From Actinomycetota bacterium (lineage in GTDB: Bacteria; Actinomycetota; Actinomycetes; S36-B12), in assembly GCA_026392575.1 (NCBI GenBank), contig JAPLBU010000419.1:6033-32668 (forward strand): a DNA stretch of 26,636 bases. Direction: 5' to 3'. A program made the position numbers and the translations under genes. Under the pieces are notes generated by a model that was not told where the DNA came from, did no database searches, and was given only the letters and a program-made list of their open reading frames with translations. The number at the start of each line of letters is the position of its first letter. The first letter of the stretch is position 1. Below, piece by piece: positions 1 to 26,636 of this stretch.

Positions 1-2
1 CG

Positions 3-389
3 GCAACGCTGATGATTCTCGAGTCGCTGGGCGCCGACACGGTCAACCTGCCCACGGACCTCACCTTGCCTGAGCTCGTCGAGATGCGTTCGGTCACCCG
101 GCTGCCCCTGGATCTGTATGTCGAGGCGCCCGACGCCATGGGCGGCATCGTGCGAGGCGAGCAGGTCGGCGATCTCATTGCTGCTGCCTCGCCTCTCTAT
201 GTGAAGTTCGGACTCCGGAACTCTCGTCGCCTCTACCCGTCGGGCATGCACCTTCAGGCCGATGCCGAGATCATCGGCCGGGAGAAGGTCCGTCGCGCCG
301 TCGTCTCCATGGAGTGGCTCGCTCGGCATGGGTCGGCCGCCATCCAGTCACTGCCGGGGGCAGCGGGACTGGGGATTCCGCGGCGATGA
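3..389 (+). CDS. U32-family-like (TIM-barrel) protein, 5'-truncated by the window edge
   Basis: Frame is open from base 3. The C-terminal pattern LPLDLYVEAP...PLYVKFGLRNS..YPSG...REKVRRA resembles actinobacterial 'peptidase U32' proteins. Stop TGA 387-389 overlaps the next ATG (ATGA). Confidence 0.6.
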   Translation, partial: ATLMILESLGADTVNLPTDLTLPELVEMRSVTRLPLDLYVEAPDAMGGIVRGEQVGDLIAAASPLYVKFGLRNSRRLYPSGMHLQADAEIIGREKVRRAVVSMEWLARHGSAAIQSLPGAAGLGIPRR

Positions 390-2110: not shown

Positions 2111-2174
2111 GCCGGGACGCTTCTGGGCCAAATAGAGCCGCGACTGAACAGTCGAGGCACACAAAGGAGGAAGT

Positions 2175-3506: not shown

Positions 3507-3519
3507 GCGATACCAGGAT

Positions 3520-3552
3520 TCGGTGGACCCGGCCCTCGGCCGGGTCCACCGA
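3520..3552 (+). terminator. Perfect 15-bp stem-loop after the SBP gene (mRNA stabiliser or partial terminator)
   Basis: TCGGTGGACCCGGCC-ctc-GGCCGGGTCCACCGA with no U-tract. This is the usual position for differential SBP vs permease expression. Confidence 0.75.
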
Positions 3553-3583
3553 CCCGACCCATCATCGAGACGAAGGAGCCAGG

Positions 3584-4468: not shown

Positions 4469-4479
4469 GGAGCGACGAC

Positions 4480-6239: not shown

Positions 6240-6255
6240 CTCAAGAAGGGTTGCC

Positions 6256-7645: not shown

Positions 7646-7655
7646 GGAGGGGACA

Positions 7656-10757: not shown

Positions 10758-11110
10758 CTCAGGAGGCCCCGCTCGAGGTAGATGCCGGCGGCCTCGCGCA
10801 CGAGGGCGGCATTGAGCACGGCGCCGCGGGCCTCGAGGTCGGCGGCGACTGCCTCGAAATCCTCGCGCGTGGACCGCCGTGGGCGAAGCGCCTCGTAGAT
10901 GCCCATGACCAGCGAGTCAGGCAGCAACGCCAACTCGGCTGCACGGCGGAAGTTGGCCGCCAATTGCGGATTGCCGTGCTCCTCGGCGATCTGGGCCTGG
11001 ATCTCGAGGGTCTGCGGGTGGATGCGGACGTCCTCGATGTCGACGTCGCCGGCCCGGAGCGCGTCCAGGGTCACCTCGGAGACGGGTCGTCCCGACTTGG
11101 CGAGAGTCAC
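10754..11110 (-). CDS. pduE: B12-dependent diol dehydratase small (gamma) subunit
   Basis: Motifs SGRPVSEVTL, DVRIHPQTLEIQAQIAE.HG.PQLAANFRRAAEL, YEALRPRRST and VREAA. Start GTG 11110 follows AAGGAG and overlaps the upstream stop. Confidence 0.92.
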   Translation of the reverse strand: MTLAKSGRPVSEVTLDALRAGDVDIEDVRIHPQTLEIQAQIAEEHGNPQLAANFRRAAELALLPDSLVMGIYEALRPRRSTREDFEAVAADLEARGAVLNAALVREAAGIYLERGLLR

Positions 11111-13371
11111 GGTGCCACTCCTTCCAGGGACATGAGCTCGGGTCGGGCCGTCGGGCCGCACCACTGACGTTCAATCGCTACGAGCGACACGACGGTCGTG
11201 TGGTAGCGGGCTTCGATGGCCTCGTCGGAGTAGGGATTGCGCTCGGGCTCGGGGGTGGCGCCCTTGGCATGACGCCCGGCGTTGATGCCCATCTGCCGGT
11301 AGGAGGCCCGCGTCAGGGAAGGAGCGACGCTGTAGAGCTCGAGATTCGCAAGCGGAGTGAGGTCTCGACGGTGGATGAGTGCGGTTCCCTTGGCCTGCAG
11401 CCCGATGCCGATGCCTGACCCTGCCATCCGTGCGGCCGTCAGGCCGATGAGGCCGAGGTCGATCGTGTCGTTCACGCGCACGATGCGACCGACGCAGCCC
11501 TCCTCCTCCAGGCCGGCGAGCAGTTCATCAAGGGCCTGGGTGACCGTGAGTCCCGACAGTGTCCGCCAGATGGCGCGCCCGGCTGCGGGTGACAGGCCGA
11601 TGACGACGTCGCGTGGGTCGTGGCCGGCCGTGGCCGGCCCGACCGCGGTGAGCGCGGCACTGCGGTAGGAGCCCTGCTCCACGCGCAGGTCTTCGACGGA
11701 GCGCTCCTGCCGGATCGCGTCGATCTCGGCCTGGCGCTGAGGCGTGGGGACGTAGCCCGTGCCGGGGCCGGCGTAGTCATTGGGATCCGTGACGAGCGAG
11801 AGCACCTCCATGTCCTCGGTGAAGATCGCCGCGGTCTGTAGGTAGTCCCCGTGGACTCGCGCATGAAGCATGTCCAGCAAGCGTTCTGCCTCGATCTCGT
11901 AGCCGGCCTCGTCCAGGGCCAGGACGACGTCGAGCATCGTCACGTTCGTGTCGCGGATGAGCCGCGAGGCGGTGAGTGGCGTCATGAGATCGGCATCGGG
12001 GACGTCCTTGCTGCCGGCGGCGTCCACCGCCTGTGCCATCCAGGCTTCGGTGAAGTCGCCCAGTCCCAGGATCCGATAGACGTCGCGGACGGCCTCGACG
12101 GCCCGCTGCCGCAGCGCCGCCACGTGGGGCTCGGCCGCCGTGCGCAGGCCACCGTCGACGCCCCAGTCGCGCTGCATCGCCAGGAAGTCGTCGATGTCCT
12201 CGGCGTTCCACTGGCTTGGGCCGAACATGTTGTCGTAGCGCTGGATGGAGCCGAAGCCGCTGCAGATGAAGTCGGAGCCACCGATGAAGATCGGGTGGGT
12301 GCGAGACGTGCGCCGGACGTCGGACTCGCTCATCAGGGCGTCGTTCCCCGTGCACGCCTCGAGGTTGCGCAGCATCACCATCAGGTTCTCGGCCATCAGG
12401 CTGCGCACCCCGCCAGGGACCGCACCGGCCACGGATGCCGAGTCGATGCCGCCGTTCTGCACGCCCTGTGACCCGATGGCCCGAGCGAGGGCCACGCACC
12501 GCGCCTCGAGGTAGAACATGGACCGGCCCTCGGCGCTGCCCATCAGCGCTTCGGCGCCGCCGCCCGAGGTCACCCGCATCTTGATGCCGCGACTTGCGTA
12601 GGCCGAGGTCAGGAAGGCCTTCGACCAGGGGGTGTCGTCGCCGTCGATGAAGATCTGCTCGGTGCCGTAGAGCGATACGGTCTCGGCGTACGACACGAGT
12701 CCGCGCATCCCCATCTCCAGCTCGAGGGCCTCCTCGACGGAGCACTGGACGAGAATTCCCCGCGACGCGACTGCCGCGCCGATGCTGACCGCGATCGCGT
12801 TGGAGGGGGCGTCACCGAGGACGGGAACCGTCGTCTCGATCTCGCGGAACCCGAACGCGGCAGCCGTGGCGGCGTCGGCGGCGAGCAGCAGCGGATCGTC
12901 GGAACGGTTCGTGACGTGTGCTTGGTTGCTGGGCGTGCGACGCGCCCGGCACTTCGTCATCGCGATAACCAGTTCGGCCGGTCGCAGGAGTGCGAGCACC
13001 TGCGCGAGCTTGGCCGGCGTCATGCCGGCCGCGAGGCGGACGACCTCGGCGCGAGACGTTCCCAGGTCCACGATCATGCGGGCGAACGCCAGGTTGTCGA
13101 TGGCCATCGCCTCGGCGGCCACCCCGAGGTCGAGACCGTGCACGGAGATGAAGGTGTCGATGATGTCGAACTGCGCCGCGGCCCGGAAGTCCATCTCGAC
13201 GACCCGGCCGTCGACGATGCTCAGCGACGGCTGCGGGTCCGCGGGGGAATCGAAGGCGATCAGGCCGAGCGAGGCGTCCTCGACGGCGAACCCGTCGAGA
13301 TTGACGCGCTGCTGATCCATGAAGCGGAATCGGCCGATCGGCTGCCTGGGCTCCCGCTCGTCGACGGTCAT
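11107..13371 (-). CDS. pduC: B12-dependent diol dehydratase, fused large (alpha, PduC-like) and medium (beta, PduD-like) subunits, 754 aa
   Basis: Alpha motifs NQAHVTN, EIETTV, YAETVS.YGTE, DGDDTPWSK, QNG, GND, YDNMF and NDYAGPGTGY run in frame into beta motifs VVIGLSPA, AGLEEEG, SGIGIGLQAKGT and NLELY. ATG 13371 has an ATGA overlap. Confidence 0.95.
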   Translation of the reverse strand: MTVDEREPRQPIGRFRFMDQQRVNLDGFAVEDASLGLIAFDSPADPQPSLSIVDGRVVEMDFRAAAQFDIIDTFISVHGLDLGVAAEAMAIDNLAFARMIVDLGTSRAEVVRLAAGMTPAKLAQVLALLRPAELVIAMTKCRARRTPSNQAHVTNRSDDPLLLAADAATAAAFGFREIETTVPVLGDAPSNAIAVSIGAAVASRGILVQCSVEEALELEMGMRGLVSYAETVSLYGTEQIFIDGDDTPWSKAFLTSAYASRGIKMRVTSGGGAEALMGSAEGRSMFYLEARCVALARAIGSQGVQNGGIDSASVAGAVPGGVRSLMAENLMVMLRNLEACTGNDALMSESDVRRTSRTHPIFIGGSDFICSGFGSIQRYDNMFGPSQWNAEDIDDFLAMQRDWGVDGGLRTAAEPHVAALRQRAVEAVRDVYRILGLGDFTEAWMAQAVDAAGSKDVPDADLMTPLTASRLIRDTNVTMLDVVLALDEAGYEIEAERLLDMLHARVHGDYLQTAAIFTEDMEVLSLVTDPNDYAGPGTGYVPTPQRQAEIDAIRQERSVEDLRVEQGSYRSAALTAVGPATAGHDPRDVVIGLSPAAGRAIWRTLSGLTVTQALDELLAGLEEEGCVGRIVRVNDTIDLGLIGLTAARMAGSGIGIGLQAKGTALIHRRDLTPLANLELYSVAPSLTRASYRQMGINAGRHAKGATPEPERNPYSDEAIEARYHTTVVSLVAIERQWCGPTARPELMSLEGVAP

Positions 13372-13802
13372 GCGTGAACCTCGTCCTCGAAGGTTGCGGC
13401 GGCGGCCTCGGCGGCTGTCCTGTCCTGGGTGGCGCTTCCGCCGCTGACTCCGACGGCACCCACGACGCGATCGCCGTCCCACAGTGGGACGCCGCCCGCG
13501 AAGGCGATGTATCGGCCTTGATCGGCAGAGTTCATGCCCGCGAGGTCGGCGCCGGGCTGCACGAGGGGGGTGAGCTCATGCGTGGCGATCCGGTGGGCCA
13601 CGGCCGTGAAGGCCTTGTCACGCGCGAGGACTGGCCCGGCGATCTCCGCCCCGTCCATGCGTTCGAAGGAGATGAGGTGGCCGCCGGCATCGACGATCGC
13701 GACGGACACCAGCGCGCCTGCGGCGCTCGCTGACACCCGTGCGGCCCCGCTCATGCGCTGCGCGAGGTCTAGGTCCACCTCGTGTCGGGTCACGCGTGCC
13801 AT
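13368..13802 (-). CDS. GlcG/HbpS-family heme-binding protein (like the PduO C-terminal domain or DhaG)
   Basis: Motifs VAIVDAGG....ERMDGA, A.DKAFTA, GGVPL..G.VVGAVGVSGGS..QD. Confidence 0.88.
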   Translation of the reverse strand: MARVTRHEVDLDLAQRMSGAARVSASAAGALVSVAIVDAGGHLISFERMDGAEIAGPVLARDKAFTAVAHRIATHELTPLVQPGADLAGMNSADQGRYIAFAGGVPLWDGDRVVGAVGVSGGSATQDRTAAEAAAATFEDEVHA

Positions 13803-14815
13803 GATGCCGCCTTCCGTCGCAGTTCCGCGTGCTTGCCGTCCATGGCGATCGCGCCACCGAGTACTGACTTCGGGACCTTGCAGACCACTGTGTAGGCGGT
13901 GTCGACGACGTTCGCGATGGGGGTCAGTGCCGTCTGCGAGACGAATTGGTAGGAGTCGATGGCGCTCTGCCCCGTCAGCTCAGCCACCCAGAGCACCATC
14001 TGGTGGTGGGCGATGCGGAAGGCGTCCTCCAGCGGACGCGCCGACCCGGTGGTCATGATGTAGCCGTCGCTCTCGATCCGGGGCCAGGCCGTGGGTCGGC
14101 CGCGCACGACGTCGAGGATGACCGTGGTGTCCATTGCACACTCGACGGCGACGCCGCAGGTCTCTCCCTCGCCCTGTCGCGCGTGTCCGTCGCCAAGGCT
14201 GAAGAGAGCCCCCTCGACGTTGACGCCGAGGTAGCACGTCACCCCCGCCCGCATCTCCGGTGTGTCCATGTTGCCGCCCCAGTCGCCGGGGGCCAAGGAC
14301 GAGCGCACCTCGCTCAATGCGGGCGCCACGCCGACGGTGCCATGCATCGGATCGAGGGGAAGGGCTGCGGTGAACGGGGTATCGGCGGCAAGGTAGCGGA
14401 CCACGGACTCCGCTCGGTCGATCTCGTAGATCCAGGTGCGCTCGAGCAGGGAGGTGTGCAGCATCGCGGTCATCGGAGTCGAGGTGAGCGCTCCGAAGAA
14501 CGGGACCGTTGAGCTGACGCCCCACGATTCGCGAGGCTCGATGGAGACGAAATGCACGGCGAGGGTGTCGCCGAGCATGGCGCCCTCGACGTAGAAGGGT
14601 CCGGACTGGGGATTCAGCAGCCGCGGGTCGCAGACTTCGCTGGCCATGTCAGAAGTCGAGCGCACGCGCCCGCCGAAACAGTCCATCGTCCAAGTCGACA
14701 GCAGGGTTCCGGGCCGTATCGACGCCACCGGAGCGACCCCGCCGAAGGTGTAGGTGTAGGTCGTGGGGTCCGCGCCGGCATCGGGCTCCCACCGGAATTC
14801 CTGCGGTGCGGTCAC
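13790..14815 (-). CDS. Acetamidase/formamidase family amidohydrolase
   Basis: Motifs NPQSGPFYVEGAM.GDTL, PMHGTVGVAP, GGNMD, GALFSLGDGHARQGEGETCGVAVE. GTG 14815 follows GGAG. Confidence 0.9.
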   Translation of the reverse strand: MTAPQEFRWEPDAGADPTTYTYTFGGVAPVASIRPGTLLSTWTMDCFGGRVRSTSDMASEVCDPRLLNPQSGPFYVEGAMLGDTLAVHFVSIEPRESWGVSSTVPFFGALTSTPMTAMLHTSLLERTWIYEIDRAESVVRYLAADTPFTAALPLDPMHGTVGVAPALSEVRSSLAPGDWGGNMDTPEMRAGVTCYLGVNVEGALFSLGDGHARQGEGETCGVAVECAMDTTVILDVVRGRPTAWPRIESDGYIMTTGSARPLEDAFRIAHHQMVLWVAELTGQSAIDSYQFVSQTALTPIANVVDTAYTVVCKVPKSVLGGAIAMDGKHAELRRKAASWHA

Positions 14816-14855
14816 GGTTCGCTCCAAGGGGTCGCGGGTTGCGTCAGTGGGAACA

Positions 14856-14897
14856 GCATGAGGGGTGCATGGCCGACTGGCGATGCACCCCTCATGC
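14856..14897 (-). terminator. Perfect 15-bp stem-loop between the permease and amidase genes
   Basis: GCATGAGGGGTGCAT-N12-ATGCACCCCTCATGC, with no U-tract on either strand. Confidence 0.7.
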
Positions 14898-14908
14898 CGT
14901 GAGCGTGC

Positions 14909-16522
14909 TCAGACGCGCTCGTGCGCCTCTTCGATCGTCGTGCGCCCGATCTCCGCATAGATCTCCGGCCTCTTGGCCTTGAGGTAGAGCGCGTATACGA
15001 CGCCGATCCCGAACAGGCCGACGATGTAGTACGGCATCCACTGGAACACCATGCTGTCGGCGGCGAGGCCGGCCGCGAAGTTGCGGTTCGACCACAGCAG
15101 CCACAGGACGTACAGCATGCCGGCGGCGCCGATGAGCGGCGCCACGAAGGTCGACAAGAAGTTGCCCTTGTGCACCTTCTTGACCCAGAAGAACCAGAGC
15201 ACCGCTATCGACGTTATCGACTGGACGATGAGTACCATCGCCGTTCCGATGATGGCAAGCAGGCCGTACACGTTGACGTAGGGGATCAAGTCAGGCGTGG
15301 CGACCGGATTGCCGTTGGCGTCCGCCACGTAGACGTTCGTGAACAGCTGGAACAGCACCAGCAGCAGGATCGTGATGCCCGTCTGGGTGAACGAGGCGAT
15401 CGCGGGGGACCCGTGCTTGTGGTTCACGTGGCCCAGGGTTCTGCGCACGACGGGAGCCACGCTCTCGCGGCCCATCGCGTACAGGTATCGCGCCGCTGCG
15501 TTGTGGAAGGCAAGCGCGCACGCGAAGGATCCGAGGACGACGAGGAACTTGTAGACATTGACCATGAAGCCACCGAAGTTCTGGTCGACAAGCCCGATCC
15601 ACAGGTCGATCGGGCTCGCGCCGGCGGAGAGTTCGACGGACGCCTGCGCGCCGTTGCCCACGACGACCATCCAGGACAGGAACGTGTAGAAGATCCCCAG
15701 GCCGATCACCGCGATCATGGTGGCGAGGGGGACGTTGCGCTTCGGGTTCTTGGACTCCTCGCCGTACACGGCGGTGGTCTCGTATCCGATCCAGGACCAG
15801 AACGCGAAGAAGATGCCGATGGCTGCGATACCGGCGGCCGCACCGGACCCGTAGGCGTCTGCTGGCAGGGAGACGAAGGCTGCGGCCGGACTGACCGTAT
15901 CGGCGACCATGAAGCCGTCCGGCCCGCCCTTGAAGAGCACCGAGACGCCGAGCGCGGTCAGGAGCAGCACCTCGCAGATGAGCGTGACGCCGAGGATGCC
16001 AGCGGCGAGGGTCACCGAGTAGTAGGTCAGAGCCGCGATGACGAGGCAGGCGATGATGCCGATGATGAGCCAGTGGACGTTGAAGCCCATAGGCGCGAGC
16101 ACGTAGTCGGATGCGAAGTACGCGAACGCTCCGATGAGGGACCCCTCGAACACGATGTAGGCCACTGCCGCCAGCATCCCGGACGCCATGCCCCAGACCT
16201 GGCCCAGGCCGTGGGAGATGAACCCGTAGAAGGCGCCGGCAGTGGTGACGTGGCGGGCCATCGCGACGAAGCCCACCGTGAAGATGGCGAGCACGATCAT
16301 CGCGAACAGGTAGCCACCCGATGCGCCGATGCCGTTGCCGTAGCCGACGGCGATCGGGACGTTGAATGTCATGGCCGTGATGGGCGCGGCGTTGGCCACC
16401 GCCATGAACAGGACACCGAGCAGGCCGACCGCGCCGGCCTTCAGCCGGGCAGCGTCCTTTTCGGGAACGACGTGGTCGCCGGGCAGGGCGTGGGGCCCGT
16501 CCTCGATGTTGCTCGTAGTCAT
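14909..16522 (-). CDS. APC-family amino acid/amine permease
   Basis: About 12 hydrophobic segments with ANAAPITAM, FYGFISHGLG and WIGYETTAVYGEESKNP. RBS GAAAGGA. Confidence 0.92.
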   Translation of the reverse strand: MTTSNIEDGPHALPGDHVVPEKDAARLKAGAVGLLGVLFMAVANAAPITAMTFNVPIAVGYGNGIGASGGYLFAMIVLAIFTVGFVAMARHVTTAGAFYGFISHGLGQVWGMASGMLAAVAYIVFEGSLIGAFAYFASDYVLAPMGFNVHWLIIGIIACLVIAALTYYSVTLAAGILGVTLICEVLLLTALGVSVLFKGGPDGFMVADTVSPAAAFVSLPADAYGSGAAAGIAAIGIFFAFWSWIGYETTAVYGEESKNPKRNVPLATMIAVIGLGIFYTFLSWMVVVGNGAQASVELSAGASPIDLWIGLVDQNFGGFMVNVYKFLVVLGSFACALAFHNAAARYLYAMGRESVAPVVRRTLGHVNHKHGSPAIASFTQTGITILLLVLFQLFTNVYVADANGNPVATPDLIPYVNVYGLLAIIGTAMVLIVQSITSIAVLWFFWVKKVHKGNFLSTFVAPLIGAAGMLYVLWLLWSNRNFAAGLAADSMVFQWMPYYIVGLFGIGVVYALYLKAKRPEIYAEIGRTTIEEAHERV

Positions 16523-16786
16523 GGACCATCCTTTCGGACGAAGACCTGCGTGATGCAGATCACGTGCGCCGGATTATCGCGCTAACGGCGGACCGTTACA
16601 AGCATTTTCCACTATTCCGGTCTGGAATTCTTCCAACACTTATGTCAATACGGTCTAGCTTCTTGACCGTAATCCGCCGAATACCTATGCGAATCGGCCA
16701 TGCGGAGGGGCCGAGCATGATCGGAGGAGGGGAGAAATCTCCCCTTTGGGCCTTGCTTTGGTCTGTTTTTTCGGTATGGTAATCAA
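16523..16786. promoter_or_regulatory. Divergent control region with several inverted repeats
   Basis: More AT-rich than flanking genes. Inverted repeats TAACGG-N4-CCGTTA (16583-16598), TACGGTCTAG-N3-CTTGACCGTA (16649-16671) and AGGGGAGA-N2-TCTCCCCT (16728-16745). Confidence 0.7.
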
Positions 16787-16787
16787 G
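16753..16787 (+). promoter_or_regulatory. Putative housekeeping-sigma promoter giving a leaderless transcript of the BMC operon
   Basis: TTGCTT (16753-58)-N16-TATGGT (16775-80)-N6-GTG start, with no Shine-Dalgarno before the GTG. Confidence 0.5.
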
Positions 16788-18115
16788 TGACTGGGCAGAC
16801 CAATAAGACGGATGGTGAAGCAGCGCCCGAGTACGACTACGGGTTGTTCTCCTTCGCCTCGAAAGCCGAGGTCTTTGAGAAGGCCAAGGAGTACTGGAAC
16901 CCTGGCAAGACGCAGTTCTGGATCGACTCCGGCATTCCTCTGGTCATCGACCGGCGCGAGGAGTACTTCATCTACGACATGTCGGGCAAGCGACTGATCG
17001 ACCTGCACCTCAACGGCGGCACGTACAACCTGGGCCACCGCAATCCCGAGGTCGTCCAGGCCGTAACCATCGCCATGCAGCACTTCGACATCGGCAACCA
17101 CCACTTCCCCGCACTGGCTCGTACGGCATTGGCCGAGGCCCTGATCTCGTCGGCTCCCCCCGGGCTCACCAAGGTCATCTACGGGTCGGGCGGGGGAGAG
17201 GCGATCGATATCGCCATCAAGACGGCGCGCCATGCCACCCAGAAGCGCAAGATCCTGTCGATCATCAAGGCATATCACGGCCACACCGGGCTCGCCGTGG
17301 GCACCGGCGATGACCGGTTCTCCAAGCTGTTCCTCTCCGATCAGCCGGAGGACTTCCCGCACGTGCCGTTCAACGACCTGAATGCCATGGAGGCGGCCCT
17401 GAAGGGGCGTGACATCGCCGCCGTCATCATGGAGACGATCCCGGCGACATACGGTTTCCCCCTGCCGGAGCCCGGCTACCTGCGCGCGGTCAAGGCGCTG
17501 TGCGAGAAGTACGACGCCCTCTACATCGCTGACGAGGTGCAGACCGGCCTCATGCGCACCGGTGAGCTGTGGGGCATCACGAAGGATGGCATCTCCCCGG
17601 ACATCATGGTCACGGGCAAGGGCATCTCTGGGGGCATCTACCCGATCGCGTGCGTGCTCGTGAGCGAGCGGTGCGCGGGCTGGCTGACTGAGGACGGCTT
17701 CGGGCATATCTCGACTTTCGGTGGGGCCGAGCTCGGCTGTATCGCGGCGCTGAAGGTCCTTGAGATCACCTGCCGCCCGGAGACCCGCTCGATGGTCCAC
17801 TACATCGCGGACTTCATTGGACGCGGCCTGCGGGAGATCCAGGCCACCTACCCGGACTGGTTCATCGGCATCCGCCAGAACGGCGTGATCTTCGGCCTGG
17901 AGTTCAACGATCCGCAGGGTGCGAAGTACGTCATGAGGCGCCTGTACGAGAACGGTGTGTGGGCGATCTTCTCGACTCTGGATCCACGGGTGCTCCAGTA
18001 CAAGGCCGGCATCCTGCTCAAGCCCGAGCTCGCGGAGGAGCTGCTCGATCGCACGCAGGTCGCCATCGGCCAGGCGTACGACGATGTGCGCGGCGGGAAG
18101 GGGGGCCGGAGATGA
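16787..18115 (+). CDS. Class III PLP aminotransferase-fold enzyme; RMM/AAU aminopropanol-phosphate phospho-lyase candidate
   Basis: Motifs LNGGTYNLGHRNP, YHGHTG, ADEVQTG and DIMVTGKGISGG (PLP Lys). Same position as the equivalent gene in the M. smegmatis RMM locus. Confidence 0.88.
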   Translation: MTGQTNKTDGEAAPEYDYGLFSFASKAEVFEKAKEYWNPGKTQFWIDSGIPLVIDRREEYFIYDMSGKRLIDLHLNGGTYNLGHRNPEVVQAVTIAMQHFDIGNHHFPALARTALAEALISSAPPGLTKVIYGSGGGEAIDIAIKTARHATQKRKILSIIKAYHGHTGLAVGTGDDRFSKLFLSDQPEDFPHVPFNDLNAMEAALKGRDIAAVIMETIPATYGFPLPEPGYLRAVKALCEKYDALYIADEVQTGLMRTGELWGITKDGISPDIMVTGKGISGGIYPIACVLVSERCAGWLTEDGFGHISTFGGAELGCIAALKVLEITCRPETRSMVHYIADFIGRGLREIQATYPDWFIGIRQNGVIFGLEFNDPQGAKYVMRRLYENGVWAIFSTLDPRVLQYKAGILLKPELAEELLDRTQVAIGQAYDDVRGGKGGRR

Positions 18116-19674
18116 GCTCGGTGACGATGTCTGAGATCCCGCTCGAGCCGGCCGGCGTGCCGCGCGGCCGGGCCATGGTGGAACGCGCCGAGTGGGCCGC
18201 TCGCGCATTCGCGCGCTACGACATCGAGAGCGTGCGACGCATTGCCAAGGCCGCGGCTGAGGCCGGCGCCGCCCATGCCAAGAGGTTCGGCGACGACGCG
18301 GTCGCCGAGACGGGCTTCGGCGTCGCCGAGCACAAGTACCTCAAGAACATCTCCTGCTCGACCGGTATCTGGGAGATGTACAAGGGCCATGATTACGTCA
18401 GCCCTCGTGTCCTGGAGCAGCAGAAGATCGTCGAGATCCCCCGGCCCGCGGGCGTCGTGCTCGCGCTGACCCCGTCGACCAATCCGGTCGCCACGGCCTA
18501 CTTCAAGGTTCTTTCGGCACTCCTGACCCGAAATTCCATCATCGTGTCCCCCCATCCCTACGCCAAGAAGGTCAGTGCGGAGGCGGTCCGGGTCATGAGC
18601 GAGGCTGCCGTCGCCGCGGGTGCTCCCGACGGCTGCATCCAGGTGGTCGAGGAGCCGTCGATCCCCCTGATCACCGCGCTGATGACCGATGACCGGGTAG
18701 CCGTCGTCGTTGCGACGGGTGGCACTGCGATGGTCCGGGCGGCCTACCGGAGTGGGAACCCTGCGCTCGGCGTGGGCCCGGGCAACGTCCCGGTCCTGGT
18801 CGATGCCTCAGCCGACGTCACGATGGCGGCGCGTCGAATCGTAGCCAGCAAGTCGTTCGACAACTCGATCCTGTGCACCAACGAGAGCGTCCTCATCGTC
18901 GAGGACGCAGTCGCAGACAAGCTGGTCCAGGCCCTACGCCGCGAGGGCGCGTACATCGCGTCCGCCGAGGAGGCCGAGTCCATCCGCGCCGTGATCTTCG
19001 ACGGCGAGAACTTCCGCACCAGCTGGGTCGGGCGCGACGCCACCGCGATCGCCAAGGCCGCCGGCATCCGCGTTCCCGCCGCGACCAAGATCCTGATCGC
19101 GCCGATCGATCTGGTCGTGCCCGAGGAGATGCTGGCGCACGAGAAGCTCTGTCCGGTGCTCGGCATGGTGCGCGTGCCAACTGCGGGACGGGGCATCGAC
19201 GCGGCGCGTGCCGTCCTGCGCATCACCGGAGCCGGGCACAGCGCCGCCATCCACAGCCAGGACGCGCGGACGATCATGGACTTCTCCGCCGCAGTTCGCG
19301 TCCTGCGTGTCTCCGTCAATGTCGGCAACAGCCTCGGGGGCGCTGGCATCGAGACCAACCTGGCTCCCACCATGACGATCGGCACCGGGTTCTTCGGGCG
19401 GTCGTCGCTGGGGGAGAACCTCGAGCCGAAGCACCTTGTCAACATCACGCGGATCGCGTACAACGCCGACGCGGCGGTGACGATGCCCAGTTTCGCCGGG
19501 ATCGATCCGTGGTCGGCTCCGACCGGCCCGGTGCCGGTCTACCCGCTCCCGTCGAATGCGCACGAAAGCGGTGTCGCCCCCGTCGAGCGACGCGATCAGG
19601 CCGACGACGGGGAGCTGCGCGAGGAGATCCGCCGGCTGGTCATCGAAGAGCTCCGACAGATCATTAAGGGCTGA
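18112..19674 (+). CDS. CoA-acylating aldehyde dehydrogenase with C-terminal encapsulation peptide
   Basis: Motifs PAGVVLALTPSTNP, ATGG, GVGPGNVP, SFDNSILCTNES (catalytic Cys) and HEKLCP. Pro-rich linker, then ELREEIRRLVIEELRQII. Confidence 0.92.
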   Translation: MSSVTMSEIPLEPAGVPRGRAMVERAEWAARAFARYDIESVRRIAKAAAEAGAAHAKRFGDDAVAETGFGVAEHKYLKNISCSTGIWEMYKGHDYVSPRVLEQQKIVEIPRPAGVVLALTPSTNPVATAYFKVLSALLTRNSIIVSPHPYAKKVSAEAVRVMSEAAVAAGAPDGCIQVVEEPSIPLITALMTDDRVAVVVATGGTAMVRAAYRSGNPALGVGPGNVPVLVDASADVTMAARRIVASKSFDNSILCTNESVLIVEDAVADKLVQALRREGAYIASAEEAESIRAVIFDGENFRTSWVGRDATAIAKAAGIRVPAATKILIAPIDLVVPEEMLAHEKLCPVLGMVRVPTAGRGIDAARAVLRITGAGHSAAIHSQDARTIMDFSAAVRVLRVSVNVGNSLGGAGIETNLAPTMTIGTGFFGRSSLGENLEPKHLVNITRIAYNADAAVTMPSFAGIDPWSAPTGPVPVYPLPSNAHESGVAPVERRDQADDGELREEIRRLVIEELRQIIKG

Positions 19675-19677
19675 CCG

Positions 19678-20280
19678 ATGGCCGACCTACGCTCCTTCAT
19701 CTTCTTGGACAGGCTGCAGCCTCAGACCATGTGCTACCTGGGCACCATGGTCCGCGGGGCGCTCCCCCGGGCGGATGTCGCGGCACAGATCATCGAGGTG
19801 GCCCCCGGCCTGGATATCGAGCCGCTCACCGACGTCGCACTGAAGTACGCCGAGGTCTCGGCGGGGATGCTGTTCGTCGAGCGGCAGTTCGGGTATCTGG
19901 AGATCCACGGGCCCACCTCCGCGGTGAAGGCGTCGGGCGAGGCCGTTCTCACGCAGTTGGGCGCCTCGGCCAGTGATGCAATGAAGCCGCAGATCCTCGC
20001 CTCGCGCATCGTGACGATGCTCGACCGGCAGCACGCATTCCTCATCAACCGGAACAAGATCGGGTCCATGGCGCTGCCGGGCGAATCGCTCTTCGTGCTT
20101 GAGATGCAGCCCGCGTCGTATGCCATCCTCGCGACGAACGAGGCGGAGAAAGCCGCTCGCATCAAGGTCGTGGACTACCGCATGGTGGGTGCCACGGGAC
20201 GCGTGTACCTGTCGGGGAAGGAAGCCGATGTCCGCCAGGCCGCTGAGGCGGCCGAGGAAGCATTGAGGGTGGTTTCGTGA
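19678..20280 (+). CDS. BMC-T shell protein (double-stacking, CcmP-like type)
   Basis: LRSFIFLDRLQPQ, VERQFGYLEIH and GATGRVYLSG; tandem BMC domain size (200 aa). Confidence 0.92.
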   Translation: MADLRSFIFLDRLQPQTMCYLGTMVRGALPRADVAAQIIEVAPGLDIEPLTDVALKYAEVSAGMLFVERQFGYLEIHGPTSAVKASGEAVLTQLGASASDAMKPQILASRIVTMLDRQHAFLINRNKIGSMALPGESLFVLEMQPASYAILATNEAEKAARIKVVDYRMVGATGRVYLSGKEADVRQAAEAAEEALRVVS

Positions 20281-20735
20281 CCCAGCGGATTCCTGCCGAC
20301 CTGCTTCGCGACATGGTGCGAGAGATCCTCATGGACGTCGTCGAGTCCGAGGTGGCCGGGCGTGTGGACAGCCTCGCGGGAGGGGAATCGGTCGGCGGCC
20401 GTCGGCGCGAGACTGTGGCGATCGGCAGCCAGGACGATCTGAACCGCGCGATCCGCAGGATCCTCGCCGACGCAATGGACCCCCAGCGGCGCGGTGCCAT
20501 CGAGCAGGGCGACATCGCTTTCGTGCTTTCGACGGCAACGCTGGAGCAGGCACCAAGGAGACCTGCTGTTGTTGAGCCGATCCACCGAGTCGACAAGGGT
20601 GCGGTCACGGAAAAGCAGGTCCGGGCGGCCGCAGACGCAGGCGCAACGATCGTCACGGCGCATCGCGTGGTCATCACCCCGCTCGCCAAGGACAAGGCAC
20701 GCTCGCTGGGCGTCGTCATCACAAGAGAGTCGTAG
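20277..20735 (+). CDS. Conserved RMM-locus protein of unknown function
   Basis: Coupled GTGA start. Two amphipathic helices and a C-terminal VITPLAKDKAR module. Occupies the slot of the unknown gene between BMC-T and BMC-P in RMM loci. Confidence 0.8.
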   Translation: MTQRIPADLLRDMVREILMDVVESEVAGRVDSLAGGESVGGRRRETVAIGSQDDLNRAIRRILADAMDPQRRGAIEQGDIAFVLSTATLEQAPRRPAVVEPIHRVDKGAVTEKQVRAAADAGATIVTAHRVVITPLAKDKARSLGVVITRES

Positions 20736-20743
20736 GAGGGGCC

Positions 20744-20998
20744 ATGCTTCGTGGACGAGTGATCGGCAACATCTGGGCGTCGAAGCGCCTGGACGAGGTG
20801 CCCAACGGGGCCTTCCTCGAGGTCGAGGTCGAGCCCGGCGGTGCTCGGCTCATCGCCTTCGACGTGCTGGGCAGCGGCGTCGGCGAACACGTACTGGTGG
20901 CGACGGGATCCGTCGCCGCCGCCTGGTTCCCCGGGCAAGCGCCGCCCATCGACGCGCTGATCATCGGATCCATCGATGAGTCGTCGTCCGGCTTCTAG
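20744..20998 (+). CDS. BMC-P pentameric vertex protein (EutN/CcmL family)
   Basis: [32 protein letters not shown] and [20 protein letters not shown]. Confidence 0.93.
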
Positions 20999-21062
20999 CG
21001 ACCTACCACCACACAAACCTCCTCGCGGCATCAGTCACGGGGAAGACAAGGAAGGGAAGACC

Positions 21063-21353
21063 ATGTCCAACAATGCGATCGGCATGATCGAGACGAAGGG
21101 CTACGTGGCCGCGCTGGCAGCCGCCGACGCCATGGTGAAGGCAGCAAACGTGACCATCGTCAGTCGCGAGCAGGTCGGCGACGGACTTGTCGCCGTGACC
21201 ATCGTGGGTGACGTCGGCGCCGTGAAGGCGGCAACAGAGGCCGGCGCGGAAACGGCACAGGCGGTGGGCGAGCTCGTCAGCGTCCACGTCATCCCGCGCC
21301 CGCACCCCGAGCTGTCGAGGACCTTCGGCATCTCGGCTGACCCGTCGGAGTGA
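21063..21353 (+). CDS. BMC-H hexameric shell protein
   Basis: [19 protein letters not shown], pore loop [14 protein letters not shown] and HVIPRPH. Confidence 0.95.
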
Positions 21354-22003
21354 CCGCACTGCCGCAGGCTGGGGAGACCGAGCTTCGCGTCTACCTTCTG
21401 CTCGAGGATCTGCAGCCGCAGTTCGCCGCGTACCTTGGCACGCCTACCCGGGCGCGCGGCTATCCGCCGTATTCGGGGCAGAACGCCCTGATCGTGGAGG
21501 TGGCGCCCGGCCTGGCCATCGAGAGGGTGACCGACCTCGCGCTGCGCTCCGTTCCCGGCATCGAGCCGGGGATCCTGTTCGTCGAGAGGCAGTTCGGAGT
21601 CCTGGAGGTGCATGCCGACTCGCTCGCAGATGTCATCCGGGCGGGTGAGGCGATCCTCACTGGAACGGGCACGCGGGCCGAGGACCAGCTGCGTCCACGG
21701 ATCCTGTATCACGACGTGATCGAGGACGTCACAGACCAGCATGCGGTGATCATCAACCGGAACAGGCAGGCGTCCATGCTGCTTCCGGGCGACAGCCTTC
21801 TCGTCTTCGAGATGACGCCGGCGCTGTTCGCCGCGATGGCCGCGAACGAGGCCGAGAAGGCGGCGCCCGACATCACCCTCGTGGACGTCCAAATGATCGG
21901 AGCAGCCGGTCGTGTGTACATCGGGGGTCAGACAAGTTCGGTGAACCGGGCGCGTGAGGCCATCGGCTCTGCTCTGATGTCCGTGGTCGGACGCGATCAG
22001 TAG
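21350..22003 (+). CDS. Second BMC-T shell protein (double-stacking type)
   Basis: [24 protein letters not shown] and [10 protein letters not shown]; paralogous to 19678..20280. Confidence 0.92.
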
Positions 22004-22037
22004 GCCGACCAGACCACCGACACACGAAGGGCACGAA

Positions 22038-23018
22038 ATGATCGTTGCCGAGCCGCAGTTCGAGGACTTCGCCCACGCCGCGCGGGACGCGTACGACCTC
22101 GACCCGAGTGCTGAGCTCACTCTGCTCAACGTCAGCGAAAACGGCACGTTCCGCGTCGACGATCCGGTGCAGGGACGATCGGTGCTGCGCGTGCACCGTA
22201 CGGGGTACCACGCCCGCGAAGCCATCGCGAGTGAACTGGCGTGGATCACTGCCCTGCGCAGCGAGGGCACCGTGCGAACCCCAGCCTTCATCCCGTCGCC
22301 CGCCGGCGACGACGTCGTTCTGGTGCGGCTGGCCGGTGGCGAGGAGCGCTTCGTGGTGCGCTTCGAATGGGTCGACGGAGTGGAGCCGACTGAGGACCGA
22401 CTCGCTGCGGACTTCGAGGAGCTTGGCGGCATCACCGCTCGCCTGCACGCGCACGCCCGCACTTGGCGGCGCCCGGAGGGATTCACGCGATTCGTGTGGG
22501 ACTTCGACACGTCGCTCGGCGAGCATGGCCACTGGGGACGGTGGCAGGACGGGCTGGCCGTAGGCCCGCAGGAGCAGGAGGTCCTCGGCCGATGCGCAGA
22601 CCTCATCCGGCGTCGACTGGCCGTCTACGGCACGGGACCCGAGCGATTTGGGCTCGTTCATGCCGACATGCGCCTGGCCAACCTCCTCGTCAAGGGGAAT
22701 GACGTCACGGTGATCGACTTCGACGACTGCGGCCTGAGTTGGTTCATGTACGACCTAGGATCGTCCCTGTCCTTCATCGAACATGAGCCCTACGTCCCGG
22801 AACTGGTCGATGCCTGGGTTCGCGGATACCGCGCCGTAGCGCCGCTGACGGCGCAGGACGAGGCTGAGTTGCCCACCTTCATCATGCTGCGCCGGCTCCT
22901 GCTGGTTGCCTGGATTGGATCCCACTCGAGCACCGAGACCGCGCAGGCGATGGGCGAGGACTACACCGCGACGAGCTGCCGGCTCGCCGAACACTACCTG
23001 GGCACGATGGCGATCTGA
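22038..23018 (+). CDS. Aminoglycoside-phosphotransferase/choline-kinase-fold enzyme; 1-amino-2-propanol kinase candidate
   Basis: SENGTF, Brenner motif [10 protein letters not shown] and IDFDDCG, in RMM context. Confidence 0.88.
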
Positions 23019-23028
23019 GAGGACACGT

Positions 23029-23811
23029 ATGTTCACGTCGATAGCGGGGAGGTCAGTCATCGTCACGGGCGGCACCAAGGGCATCGGCAAGGGGATCGCC
23101 CGGGTCATGGCCAAGGCGGGCGCGAACGTCCTCGTCACGGGACGTAATCGAGACGACGCGGAAGCCACCGTCGGTGAGCTGGATGCGCTCGGGACGGGTC
23201 GCGTCGAGTACTTCCTCGGCGACGTGGCCGACGCCGCTGCCTGCCAGGCGATGGCGGCCGCGGCCATCGAGTCCTTCGGGGGGATCGACATCCTGTGTGC
23301 GAACGCCGGCATCTTCCCCGACGCGAAGCTCGCAACCATGAGTGAGGAGGACATGGACCGCGTCTTCGACACGAACATCAAGGGCACTCTCCTCACCGTC
23401 CAGGCGTGCATCCCGGCGCTCGCCGCCTCGGGCCACGGACGCGTGGTCCTCACGTCCTCCATCACCGGTCCGATCACCGGCTTTCCGGGCTGGTCGCACT
23501 ACGGAGCGAGCAAGGCGGCGCAACTCGGCTTCATGCGCACGGCCGCCATCGAACTGGCCCCCCTCGGTATTACCGTGAACGCCGTCCTACCGGGCAATGT
23601 CGCCACCGAGGGCCTCGCTGACTTGTGGGAGGGCTACCGTCGCTCCATGGAGATGTCGATCCCGATGCGCCGGTTGGGCGACGTCGAGGACATCGGTAAC
23701 GCGGCCCTGTTCTTCGCCTGTGACGAGGCCGCCTACGTGACCGGGCAGGCGCTCGCCATCGACGGTGGCCAGGTTCTCCCCGAGTCTCTCGCGGCCCTGG
23801 AGGCGATGTAG
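23029..23811 (+). CDS. Short-chain dehydrogenase; aminoacetone reductase / 1-amino-2-propanol dehydrogenase candidate
   Basis: [33 protein letters not shown] and PGN. RBS GAGGA before ATG 23029. Confidence 0.9.
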
Positions 23812-23815
23812 CGCG

Positions 23816-24622
23816 ATGGCTGAAGCGGGACTCGACGATTCCGGGGCTATCGGGCCAACTGCCGAGGATGCACGGCGACGCCTGGTCGGGATGGTCGAAC
23901 GCGGCACCCTCAGGCCGGGGCAGCGGCTGGGCGCGGAGCGGGAACTCGCCGTGAAGCTCGGGGTGAGTCGGTCGACCCTGCGCCAAGCGCTCGGCGCCCT
24001 CGAGGAGGCGGGCGTCGTCCGGCGGGTTCCGGGCCGCGGGGGCGGCACGTTCATCGCCTCTCCGAAGGTGGAGCGGGATCTGTCCCGGATCGTCGGCATC
24101 CCCATGCTCCTGCGGGATCAGGGATTCACGGCCGGCTCGCGCGTGTTGAGCGTGGCGGTCAGGACCGCCGGACCGGAGGCGGCGCGGGCGCTGGGCATCG
24201 CCGAGGACGAGTTCGTCGTAGATCTGGTGCGCATCCGACTCGCCGACGGAGTGCCGATATCCCTTGAGCAGGCAGTCTTCCCCGCGGAACTCGTGCCCGG
24301 CCTGCCGGAACGTGCGCTAGGAGGTTCCATCTACGAGCTGTGCGACAGCGAGTACGGGCTGCGTCCCGACGAGGCGATCGAGCACATTGAGGTGGTCTTG
24401 GCCTCGAGTGACGAGGCGGCGGTCCTGGGAATCGATAGGGGGGATCCGCTGCTACTGGTGACCCGCACCACCCGCACCGCTGCCGGAGTGGCGTTCGAGT
24501 TCTCCCGCGACCTCTTCCGCGCTGATCGGACGCGAATAAGTGTCAAGGTGAAGGGATCGCCTGCGAACGAGAAGGCGCGCTTGCGAGGCCGCATCGTCGA
24601 GCTCGTACCTCCAGCGGAGTAG
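23816..24622 (+). CDS. GntR-family regulator (HutC/UTRA subfamily)
   Basis: wHTH (ERELAVKLGVSRSTLRQAL...GRGGGTF) followed by a UTRA domain (RIRLADGVPISLE...FRADR). Confidence 0.92.
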   Translation: MAEAGLDDSGAIGPTAEDARRRLVGMVERGTLRPGQRLGAERELAVKLGVSRSTLRQALGALEEAGVVRRVPGRGGGTFIASPKVERDLSRIVGIPMLLRDQGFTAGSRVLSVAVRTAGPEAARALGIAEDEFVVDLVRIRLADGVPISLEQAVFPAELVPGLPERALGGSIYELCDSEYGLRPDEAIEHIEVVLASSDEAAVLGIDRGDPLLLVTRTTRTAAGVAFEFSRDLFRADRTRISVKVKGSPANEKARLRGRIVELVPPAE

Positions 24623-24627
24623 CGGAC

Positions 24628-25752
24628 GTGCGCGCTCGCGACCTGCCCATCCGGTTTCAGGGAACGCCCGGGCCACTCAATGCCTTGACCGACGTGCCTG
24701 GTGTCGAAGTGGGGATGGTGACGATCGTCGGGGATGATCCGACGGACTACTCGCTGTCCGCGCGCACCGGCGTAACGGCGATCCTCCCGCTCGGGCGCGA
24801 ACGAATCGGCACGTCCGTCCCGGCGGCCATCTACTCGCTCAACGGCAACGGCGAGATGACCGGGTCGCACTGGATCGATGAGACGGGCTCGTTGTCGAGC
24901 CCGGTGATGATCACCAATACGCACGCCGTCGGAACGGTTCATCGAGGCGTGATCGATTGGTTCGCCGACAACCGGACCGCCCTCGCCGCGGAGTGGCTGC
25001 TCCCAGTTGTGGCCGAGACATGGGACGGGTATCTCAACAGCATTAACGTCCCGCACGTCATGCCGCCTCACGCCGGGCAGGCGATAGACGCCGCCTCGGA
25101 GGGGCCTGTTGCCGAGGGCTCGGTCGGTGGGGGCACTGGGATGAACTGCTACGGATTCAAGGGTGGCAACGGCACGGCGTCACGTGTTGTGAGGCTCGGC
25201 TCCGGCGAGTTCACGGTGGCCGTGTTCCTTCAGGCGAACTTCGGCGCCCGCCGTGAGCTGATGATCAATGGCGTGCCCATGGGCGACCTCGACGTCCCCT
25301 GCCCGATCGATGACGACGACTGGCTGCTTGAGGACCGGCGGTCAGGGGCGGGTGCGGGCTCGGTCATCGCCGTTGTCGCCACGGATGCACCGATGATGCC
25401 CCAACAGTGCGCGGCAATGGCCCGTCGCGTGCCGCTTGGCCTCGCCCGCACGGGAACGACGGGCGGCCATTTCAGCGGGGACCTATTCCTCGCGTTCTCC
25501 ACGGCGAATTCGGGGGCTCTCGACAGTGGGTTCCCGACAGACCCAGGTTCGGAAGTCAAGCTAAGAACGATGCAGCTGGTCCCGTGGAACCACATGGACG
25601 CCTTCTTAGCCGCGACGGTTCATTGCGTGGAGGAGGCAGTGCTCAACGCGCTGGTGTGCAACGCGACCATGGTCGGGCGGTCCGGTCACGTCAGTCATGC
25701 GCTCCCGAACGATCTCGTTCGCGAGCGGCTCGCCTCCAGCGGCGGCGCGTGA
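24628..25752 (+). CDS. DmpA/BapA-like (peptidase S58/P1) N-terminal-nucleophile amidohydrolase
   Basis: NALTDVPGVEVG, TGVTAILP, NGNGEMTG, TNTHAVG, AETWDGYLN, GSVGGGTGM, and the autoprocessing site G/SVIAVVATDAP. Confidence 0.9.
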   Translation: MRARDLPIRFQGTPGPLNALTDVPGVEVGMVTIVGDDPTDYSLSARTGVTAILPLGRERIGTSVPAAIYSLNGNGEMTGSHWIDETGSLSSPVMITNTHAVGTVHRGVIDWFADNRTALAAEWLLPVVAETWDGYLNSINVPHVMPPHAGQAIDAASEGPVAEGSVGGGTGMNCYGFKGGNGTASRVVRLGSGEFTVAVFLQANFGARRELMINGVPMGDLDVPCPIDDDDWLLEDRRSGAGAGSVIAVVATDAPMMPQQCAAMARRVPLGLARTGTTGGHFSGDLFLAFSTANSGALDSGFPTDPGSEVKLRTMQLVPWNHMDAFLAATVHCVEEAVLNALVCNATMVGRSGHVSHALPNDLVRERLASSGGA

Positions 25753-25956: not shown

Positions 25957-26153
25957 TTCGGGGATCCTGTGGCGCATGCTGTCCCGCTCGCGGGATCGGA
26001 CCCGGAGGAGCGGTTGGTCTTCCCCGCGGATGACCGTCGGGTCAGGCGCTGGAGGTCCTCGCGGTGGAGGAGGACGAGGTGGTGATAGTGATCCACGCGA
26101 TGGATCTGGGGCTGTAGTTCCGGGCACTGTATGAGGAGGGGAAGCGGTCATGA
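25957..26153 (+). pseudogene. Degenerate small toxin-like gene of a type II TA pair
   Basis: Reading ...EERLVFPADD / SGQALEVLAVEEDEVVIVIHAMDLGL*FRALYEEGKRS* needs a frameshift near 26035 and contains an in-frame TAG at 26115-26117. The final TGA overlaps the next ATG. The 5' boundary is approximate. Confidence 0.55.
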
Positions 26154-26451
26154 CTAAGCGCAAGGCGAATGGGCCGCTGTCACTGAAGGATGGGACGGTG
26201 CTCGATGACGAGGCCGTCGATCGCATCGTTGAGGAGGTTGAGGAAGCGGTGCTCGCTGGTCACGGGACTACGTCTTTCCCCCGTCAGGGACGGCCCTCGT
26301 TGACTGGTCGTGCGGCTGCGTCACCTCATGTGGGCTTCCGCGTGTCGCCGGAACTGCGGGACGACGCCGAGGCGATCGCACGTGAGCGGGCCTGACAGTA
26401 TCGGCGTTGGCTCGAGAGGCACTGGAGCAGTTCGTCAGGAAGGCCGGCTAG
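26150..26451 (+). pseudogene. Ribbon-helix-helix (CopG-like) antitoxin-type gene with a 1-nt frameshift
   Basis: GRPSLTG...SPHVGFRVSPELRDDAEAIARER, then premature TGA at 26393-95. Adding one G to the run at 26388-90 restores GLTVSALAREALEQFVRKAG* (TAG 26449-51), the second RHH helix. Confidence 0.7.
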
Positions 26452-26482: not shown

Positions 26483-26506
26483 TAGCCCTTTCCATAGCCC
26501 TTTCCA
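26483..26506. repeat. Perfect 12-bp tandem direct repeat x2
   Basis: TAGCCCTTTCCA TAGCCCTTTCCA. Confidence 0.9.
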
Positions 26507-26507
26507 C

Positions 26508-26540
26508 GTGGTTCTCGGTGGTTCTGGGTGGGTCTCGGTG
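26508..26540. repeat. Imperfect 10-bp tandem repeat x3.3
   Basis: GTGGTTCTCG GTGGTTCTGG GTGGGTCTCG GTG. Confidence 0.85.
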
Positions 26541-26598
26541 ATACGAAAACCGTTGGTGCCTATAGATTTCCCTCATAGGTCGAGAGGGCCTCAGCAAC

Positions 26599-26636
26599 CT
26601 TTTAATCCGTAGGTTCGGGGTTCGAGCCCCCGGCGA
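26599..26636 (+). tRNA. 3' half of tRNA-Lys(UUU); fragment, not an intact gene
   Basis: Anticodon loop CTTTTAA, 3' anticodon strand TCCGT, variable loop AGGTT, T-arm CGGGG-TTCGAGC-CCCCG, and start of the acceptor strand (cut by the window end). The preceding GCAAC cannot pair with TCCGT, and no canonical D-arm or acceptor 5' strand is present. Confidence 0.8.

Follow-up and report, generated by a model that had tools for sequence, protein, structure and literature searches.

A probable ~34-kb genomic island in the sole tRNA-Lys(UUU) gene of an uncultured freshwater actinobacterium

Why does a stretch of DNA filled with metabolic operons break off in the 3' half of a tRNA gene? The window analyzed here, the whole 26,636-nt stretch G000:C389:6033-32668, carries a sugar-acid catabolic module and a B12-dehydratase microcompartment module, and its base 26636 is the final base of contig C389. 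The original prediction, made from the letters alone, took the tRNA-like end for the distal attachment site of an integrated island that lies to the left of the fragment, begins upstream of the first base and carries the metabolic operons as cargo. In this work, we follow that proposal through the genome's other contigs and the related genomes of the genus, beginning with the two attachment sites, then examining the missing integrase and the distribution of the cargo. At a probability of roughly 0.75, we conclude that window positions 26483-26636 are the attR site (P arm plus core) of a ~34-kb island inserted in the only tRNA-Lys(UUU) gene of this genome, with the metabolic modules as its cargo. 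The island is of an ordinary, already known kind, namely a derivative without an integrase of its own.

The tRNA similarity at the window end is as abrupt as predicted. It extends from the first base of the anticodon loop to the contig end and is identical at all 38 positions to C224:6498-6535, part of an intact gene on another contig; its start can be placed at the loop because the five bases before 26599 cannot pair into an anticodon stem. ARAGORN calls no tRNA in the window, in agreement with the claim that no intact tRNA-Lys occurs there, and an Rfam scan of the window end and the attachment region on C224 returned nothing but the C224 tRNA itself. Both repeat sets in front of the fragment proved real and far above chance (Table 1). 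The 12-bp repeat TAGCCCTTTCCA has two matches against 0.01 expected and the 10-bp-phased repeat GTGGKTCTSGGTG three against 0.22 expected, and 0 of 100 shuffles reached either count. Moreover, in alignment A1, which includes the homologous arms from seven other species, both sets are invariant or almost so; they are thus conserved in at least seven related species. The right arm as a whole is 83-90% conserved in G009, G043, G041, G003, G035, G013, G038 and metagenome contig L062, with invariant arm words, and the sequence beyond it on the left is unrelated. The phased repeats are probably sites for an excisionase (Xis/RDF) or a DNA-bending protein.

Table 1. Features of the proposed island (positions are those of the window unless a contig is named)
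Feature	Position	Strand	Basis or remark
DHDPS-family gene, tRNA-proximal island end	L001 (G000:C224) 7013-7942	-	adjoins sugar-acid module in G042
Module 1, sugar-acid (Weimberg/Dahms-type) catabolism	1..8699	+	Pfam; continues leftward to C389:1 and the C224 DHDPS-like gene
Module 2, B12 dehydratase and microcompartment	9060..25752	.	Pfam
DUF4258/BrnT-like toxin remnant, N-terminal third missing, internal stop and frameshift	25963..26147	+	tblastn with the G043 toxin
Ribbon-helix-helix antitoxin gene, frameshift at ~26389	26150..26451	+	81-85% protein identity, in two frames, to the intact 100-aa RHH protein of the G043 element
Pair of arm-type sites TAGCCCTTTCCA, P arm	26483..26506 (copies 26483-26494, 26495-26506)	+	shuffles, conservation
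Three 10-bp-phased repeats GTGGKTCTSGGTG (at 26508, 26518, 26528)	26508..26540	+	shuffles, conservation
Remaining P arm with conserved box GTTGGTnnnnAnnGATTTCCCTCAT (26552-26576), including CCTAT-N11-ATAGG	26541..26598	+	alignment A1
Putative attR core, displaced 3' half of tRNA-Lys(UUU), tRNA positions 32-69, cut by contig end	26599..26636	+	38/38 identity

A further element of the prediction, the inverted pair CCTAT-N11-ATAGG at 26559-26579, is indeed present in the sequence. A reading as a core-type site was rejected, since the inverted symmetry of this proposed integrase site is not conserved in alignment A1. The pair appears to be a lineage-specific accident within the conserved box, because relatives carry a GTACGTAACGATTTCCCTCATGGG-like sequence without symmetry at that place.

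Fragments with the same tRNA start are found throughout the genus, being multicopy in most of 33 genomes (up to ~10 matches per genome) and spaced 1-19 kb apart on single contigs. Their P arms fall into three families by word: A (TAGCCCTTTC), B (TGGCCCTTWC) and C (TAGCCCCA), with phased GGTCT-type repeats common to all three. P' arms lack the phased triplet; in G003/G035 the P' arm has its word once. The P'-arm word that follows one fragment is often the P-arm word that precedes the next, so that the two bound one element, and some elements, for example one on contig C378, have ends of different types. Only a minority of the array members hold an integrase. Among the fragments compared, the three anticodon bases vary and the sequence from AATCCGTAGG onward is invariant, which suggests strand exchange at or just 3' of the anticodon. 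Such a pattern leaves little room for a tRNA pseudogene or a chance repeat that arose without site-specific recombination, a reading to which we give next to no credence. The absence of an integrase in this copy, and nothing else, speaks for it, and it is refuted by the exact 38-nt match, by the conservation of the arms and by the dozens of genus copies with the same tRNA start, each preceded by one of the three arm families; furthermore, integrases directly follow the tRNA or its fragments in relatives.

If the fragment is the distal end of an island, an intact tRNA should bound the other end. The only tRNA-Lys(UUU) of the genome lies at C224:6468-6540, in the same orientation as the fragment and with an identical 3' half, and is followed by a hairpin and, ~70 nt past the tRNA end, by a second TAGCCCTTTC pair, again in the same orientation. 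The intact tRNA with further copies of the arm word that the prediction called for was thus found, on another contig. The 3' part of the tRNA is directly repeated at the two ends, which lie on different contigs, with the intact gene at one of them. Arm-type sites are common to the P and P' arms, TAGCCCTTTC occurring twice per arm and being conserved across species; as a pair in the P' arm after the intact tRNA it is present in G000, G041, G043 and G003/G035. Two relatives hold homologues of both arms on one contig, where the interval between them measures 4.2 kb in G043 and 18 kb in G041; the tRNA is on the left side and the fragment on the right. Their left arm is 83% identical to that of C224 over ~170 nt and their right arm 83-86% identical to that of the window. 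The co-occurrence of both arm types on one contig therefore identifies them as the two ends of one element family (family A).

The last gene of contig C224, of the DHDPS family, is oriented convergently with the tRNA, and the contig stops 22 nt upstream of it; the start of C389 falls in a GntR/FCD-type regulator gene that lacks ~40 N-terminal codons (family and codon count judged by eye). In G042, 45 nt separate a homologue of the DHDPS-like gene (68% amino acid identity) from the counterpart of C389 from position 3519 on, with the same order and orientation. This synteny joins C224 to the start of C389 and therefore places the whole window between attL and attR, which upholds the claim that the element lies to the left of the fragment at 26599. 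The linkage across the assembly gap would follow from synteny with one relative, G042. By the same comparison, the gap is probably ~0.2 kb and the island probably ~34.3 kb, composed of C224:6541-7964, the gap and all of C389.

In the non-coding sequence behind the tRNA (L001 6640-7012 and its equivalents in L018 and L020), the integrase-less family-A elements of G041 and G043 share ~420 nt at 72% identity. By BLAST, G000 aligns with them only over the first ~170 nt, beyond which short motifs recur. The G041/G043 sequence, which includes an inverted repeat (ATAGTCGTTG...CAACGACTAT) and a GGACGCGCTAT box, is absent from the integrase-bearing element of G003.

With the two ends on separate contigs, they could also stem from different co-occurring strains or species, attL and attR never having been part of one molecule. 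G000 is a metagenome bin of 453 contigs, 74% complete, at ~4x depth. In Logan contigs of its probable source run, many different left flanks join at 26597-26602, where depth is ~100 against ~4 on the unique part. The tRNA-half word being ~25 times deeper and having many left flanks in this metagenome indicates that several congeners coexist. These Logan contigs are fragmentary and give nil cover of window positions 26468-26596; among them, neither a continuation past base 26636 nor a joint of a circle or an empty site was seen. An exact metagenome scan with the G000-specific arm had no match, and a degenerate arm pattern identified two contigs, each with different cargo. An artefact of binning or assembly is nevertheless very improbable. 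The C224 DHDPS-like gene and module 1 not only agree in order and orientation with G042 but also diverge to a like degree from their adjacent homologues there (72.6% vs 73-74% nucleotide identity), the contamination estimate is only 0.8%, and the bin holds one family-A attL and one family-A attR only, C224 and C389 being the sole contigs of the assembly with TAGCCCTTTC word pairs.

The abrupt end of C389 inside the fragment points to a further event. On contig C378, an IS481-like transposase gene ends immediately before position 1171, where CCCGGCGACCCAC and a hairpin begin, the missing tail of a tRNA fragment; the first 8 nt of this tail equal the window's final 8 nt (CCCGGCGA). The next 140 nt of C378 are 79% identical to the sequence past the family-A attR in G013, and in metagenome contig L062 the same distal region is preceded, at a distance of ~9 kb, by a family-A attR of 90% identity. 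Probably, then, the window fragment was split by insertion of the IS481-like element near the 3' end of the core, with an 8-bp target duplication, which would explain the break in C389. The left end of this IS, sought to measure the target duplication, was not found among the assembled sequences, and the IS481-like transposase gene on C378 is itself interrupted by a multicopy IS3-type element. Further on, C378 holds an integrase-less element of 3.9 kb, with permease, TetR and beta-lactamase-fold genes, and, at C378:5056, a second tRNA fragment. Ends of IS481-like elements (HTH_32 plus rve transposase) abut the T-stem/acceptor 3' parts of tRNA-derived fragments at three places, C378:1083-1183, C378:17534-17644 and C409 ~640-700, where the junction sequences are CCCGGCGACCCAC, CCCGGCGGCCGAC and CCCGAGGCGGCCCCA, plus the hairpin. 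These three junctions suggest that the IS inserts preferentially into this portion of displaced tRNA ends.

In G037, the closest relative by gyrB, tRNA-Lys is followed by a 2.1-kb element, a fragment, 3.2 kb of further sequence and then a region 97% identical to C378:15967-18699. Insertions at the post-tRNA interval are therefore hypervariable, and in this nearest relative the 34-kb island does not occupy the locus. No empty site with conserved flanks was found among the genomes compared; the complete genomes G044 and G010 have an array-free tRNA, but its flanks are not syntenic with those of G000. The sequence upstream of tRNA-Lys in G037 (L058 15185-15664) matches G000:C272:37983-38462 (92%, in the contig interior) and not C224, which implies a rearrangement of the 5' flank in the lineage of either G000 or G037. 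At L030 9227-9296, ARAGORN calls a tRNA-Lys whose 5' part is in fact a family-C P arm; what folds here, fortuitously, is a displaced fragment, and tRNA counts in such arrays should be read with care.

What the island lacks is an integrase. No PF00589 match was found on C224 or C389, so that the integrase expected beside the G000 tRNA-Lys is missing, and it was found in the sibling elements of G003 and G035 only. In the G000 assembly, the search for the tRNA-Lys integrase family yielded only a Xer-like gene (C283) and a 45%-identical paralogue (C60). The siblings show what an equipped relative looks like: on G003:C42 and G035:C85, tRNA-Lys is followed by the P' arm with its TAGCCCTTTC pair, by a 444-aa tyrosine recombinase gene transcribed towards the tRNA, and then by an HTH_17 Xis, an IS256-type (Mutator-family) transposase and metabolic cargo. 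Homologues of this integrase (44-72% identity) lie beside tRNA-Lys(UUU) in 5 of the 9 other loci fetched, a count that leaves out L036 and L037, the G003/G035 copies themselves. Besides its PF00589 catalytic domain, the 444-aa protein shows a weak match to a SAM-like core-binding domain, and its AlphaFold model contains an extra N-terminal beta-beta-beta-alpha domain (residues 11-60, pLDDT ~77-84). The best fold matches of the model are Tn1549 Int and full-length lambda Int; mean pLDDT is 59, and only the N-terminal secondary structure and the general recombinase fold are used here. Pfam returned no arm-binding family for the N-terminus; the extra N-terminal unit is a candidate for arm-site binding.

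The paralogous integrase of G000 (~45% identical) is split over two contig ends, C60:111-1100 and C268:2065-2493. Its C60 part is ~2 kb from a tRNA-Phe gene (C60:3093-3167), with which it is convergent.

A mechanism of the following kind would account for this arrangement. Family A would comprise genus-wide tyrosine-integrase elements that integrate by recombination between their attP and the tRNA gene's 3' half, a segment reaching from the anticodon loop to the 3' terminus. An incoming element would bring a new tRNA 3' half with a terminator hairpin, displacing the old 3' half to its far end, where it would now be seen as the window fragment. The N-terminal domain of the integrase would bind the paired TAGCCCTTTC words in both arms, and the three phased GGTTCTSGG repeats, a triplet confined to the P arm, may bind Xis or a bending protein. 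The left junction on C224 would then read tRNA, hairpin and P' arm, followed, after the ~0.2-kb gap, by the start of C389. We infer the crossover position, the pairing of proteins with repeats and the IS junction from the DNA and its relatives.

The cargo itself is metabolic. Module 1 encodes, by Pfam, an IlvD/Edd dehydratase, an ABC transporter, an SMP-30 lactonase, a split aldehyde dehydrogenase (ALDH) and a Zn-ADH. The C224 DHDPS-like gene is a candidate for the 2-keto-3-deoxy-acid dehydratase/aldolase step; an exact look-up of its protein in other assemblies had no match. Module 2 combines a B12 diol-dehydratase and reactivase, an HbpS-like protein, an acetamidase-like protein and an amino-acid permease with RMM-type microcompartment genes (aminotransferase, ALDH, two BMC proteins, APH kinase, SDR), and closes at its right end with a GntR regulator and an S58 peptidase. 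The module 1 ALDH (window 6181-7645) lies in two overlapping frames, 6181-7182 and 6575-7645, reflecting either a frameshifted gene or an assembly error at ~4x depth. For the main window ORFs and those at the end of C224, Pfam returned matches to metabolic, regulatory and toxin-antitoxin genes only. In these scans the window yielded no prophage genes (capsid, terminase, tail); polymerases, primases and helicases were likewise not seen among the ORFs scanned, and rep and FtsK/SpoIIIE-like tra genes were absent from the Pfam results for the window and for the G003, G041 and G043 elements.

Both modules are patchy in the genus, each being present in only 4-5 of 32 other genomes. Module 1 recurs only in G007, G008, G042 and G006, and module 2 (73-79% identity) only in G042, G008, G003 and G035, on contigs that carry no tRNA-Lys fragment. 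In G042 the two modules are 530 kb apart. The flanks read in G042 and G003 have no att-type hairpin or tRNA gene within 15-20 kb of the modules, an unrelated tRNA-Thr lying ~26 kb off. Neither module was found, at the thresholds used, in the closest relatives by gyrB, G037 (94%) and G038 (90%), whose assemblies are 90-93% complete; gyrB served as yardstick because rpoB is missing from the G000 bin. This distribution, together with the position between attL and attR, supports the predicted status of the microcompartment, B12-dehydratase and sugar operons as island cargo. In the other genomes that hold either module, it is not beside any tRNA-Lys att site, and the modules are therefore not habitual passengers of family-A elements. 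The GC content of the island (66.2%) equals that of the genome (66.6%), which points to exchange within the lineage or to an old gain.

How the modules came to lie between the arms is a separate question, and the sequence next to the right arm bears on it. Homology of the window to the G043 element starts at ~25963 and covers a decayed toxin-antitoxin pair (Table 1). By tblastn, residues 57-93 of the G043 toxin match at 26037-26147 (73%), and residues 32-55 match weakly at 25963-26034 in another frame (E = 3.5); Pfam support for the G043 toxin is weak, with DUF4258 at 24.9 bits (cut-off 25) and BrnT_toxin far under its cut-off. The combination of lesions suggests that the decay in the window is real, though one frameshift could be an assembly error at 4x. 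The junction between backbone and cargo, at ~25.75-25.96 kb, truncates the toxin gene, which suggests that the cargo entered an element already resident.

These observations also lend themselves to a quite different history, in which a small separate element left arm and fragment behind as its scar, or the two mark an old docking site, the modules having arrived by other recombination, either homologous exchange on conserved arms or illegitimate insertion into a resident G043-like 4-kb element. Beyond the cut toxin gene, this history can draw on the modest size of the homologous G043 element, just 4.2 kb, which has only the toxin-antitoxin pair and the arm in common with the window, on the att-free contexts of both modules in other species, and on the lack of an integrase and of anomalous GC. 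Against it, both modules now lie between matching attL and attR, whatever their route of entry, and were not found in the closest relatives; moreover, identical arm types enclose different cargo in three species, as expected of turnover that is element-borne or mediated by att sites. We consider a mere scar quite unlikely and retain the tRNA-Lys island, with the modules as its cargo, as the preferred reading.

The overall architecture matches that of tRNA islands formed by heterobivalent tyrosine integrases (lambda/P4/L5-type; Islander: intact tDNA plus displaced cognate fragment). Shared traits are the tRNA 3' repeat that starts at the anticodon loop, the intact tRNA at one end and the fragment at the other, arm words in both arms, phased P-arm repeats and, in the sibling elements, int-xis directly after the tRNA. 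The G000 copy differs in being without integrase or Xis and in its purely metabolic cargo; no phage, replication or transfer genes were found among the island ORFs scanned. Actinomycete ICEs in tandem at tRNA-Lys have been described in Frankia as Fean5518/Fean5534 (PMC3218068), which resemble the present array in the actinobacterial host, the use of the tRNA-Lys 3' end, the tandem arrangement and an int with an Xis-type RDF, and differ from it in that no rep or FtsK-like tra was found in the window or the sibling elements inspected. Similarly, the tycheposons and Prochlorococcus tRNA islands (10.1101/2020.12.28.424599) have cargo elements stacked at one tRNA with partial tRNA copies between them, newer arrivals that push older ones outward, integrase-less remnants and nutrient-use cargo. 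Tycheposons are defined by a lineage-specific tyrosine recombinase along with shared hallmark genes for replication and mobility, and no replication hallmark was seen among the ORFs scanned here; a further difference is that the integrase here, where present, is transcribed towards the tRNA.

The closest fit for a copy without an integrase is the cis-mobilizable element (CIME), a class defined, along with site-specific accretion, for streptococcal ICEs (PMC6323972). As in CIMEs, the attL and attR arms are seemingly intact, integration and transfer genes are missing, and the element sits in a tandem array at one att site. Unlike the streptococcal cases, no conjugative partner was identified, the target is a tRNA gene in an uncultured freshwater actinobacterial host, and an IS has probably interrupted the core close to its 3' end. 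The arm words of the island are the words found beside the 444-aa integrase in G003/G035, and G000 has no such integrase. The island is best read as a CIME-like fossil, fixed in place or at most moved by an integrase acting in trans.

A bolder idea is that the integrase-less family-A elements are maintained as non-autonomous cargo carriers, moved in trans by the Int and Xis of their siblings. In three species, unrelated cargo of 4, 18 and 34 kb lies between conserved ends, ~170-420 nt at the left and, at the right, an arm of 135 nt; in G043 and G041 the arms bracket 4.2 and 18 kb of entirely different cargo without a PF00589 match. We hold this to be unlikely. If it were true, whole operons, including a microcompartment locus, would be shuffled among uncultured freshwater Actinomycetota.

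For the biology of these bacteria, the island would place a B12-dehydratase/aminopropanol microcompartment locus and a pentose-acid pathway of an uncultured freshwater actinobacterium on accessory DNA, and these traits should therefore vary among strains or species and not belong to the core metabolism of the genus. More generally, tRNA-Lys emerges as the main gene-gain hotspot of the genus, which helps the reading of other metagenome-assembled genomes. The att-site grammar is now defined as a core, two arm words and three phased repeats in three arm families, with the cognate integrase and Xis named in the sibling elements.

Related elements may also be found beyond tRNA-Lys. On the reverse strand of G000:C390, at ~6090-6500, a different tRNA, of Thr-CGU type with anticodon loop CTCGTAA, is represented by two 3' fragments, the first of which is followed by the same type of hairpin and by TAGCCCCA-type arm words; the element superfamily therefore seems to use a second tRNA in G000.
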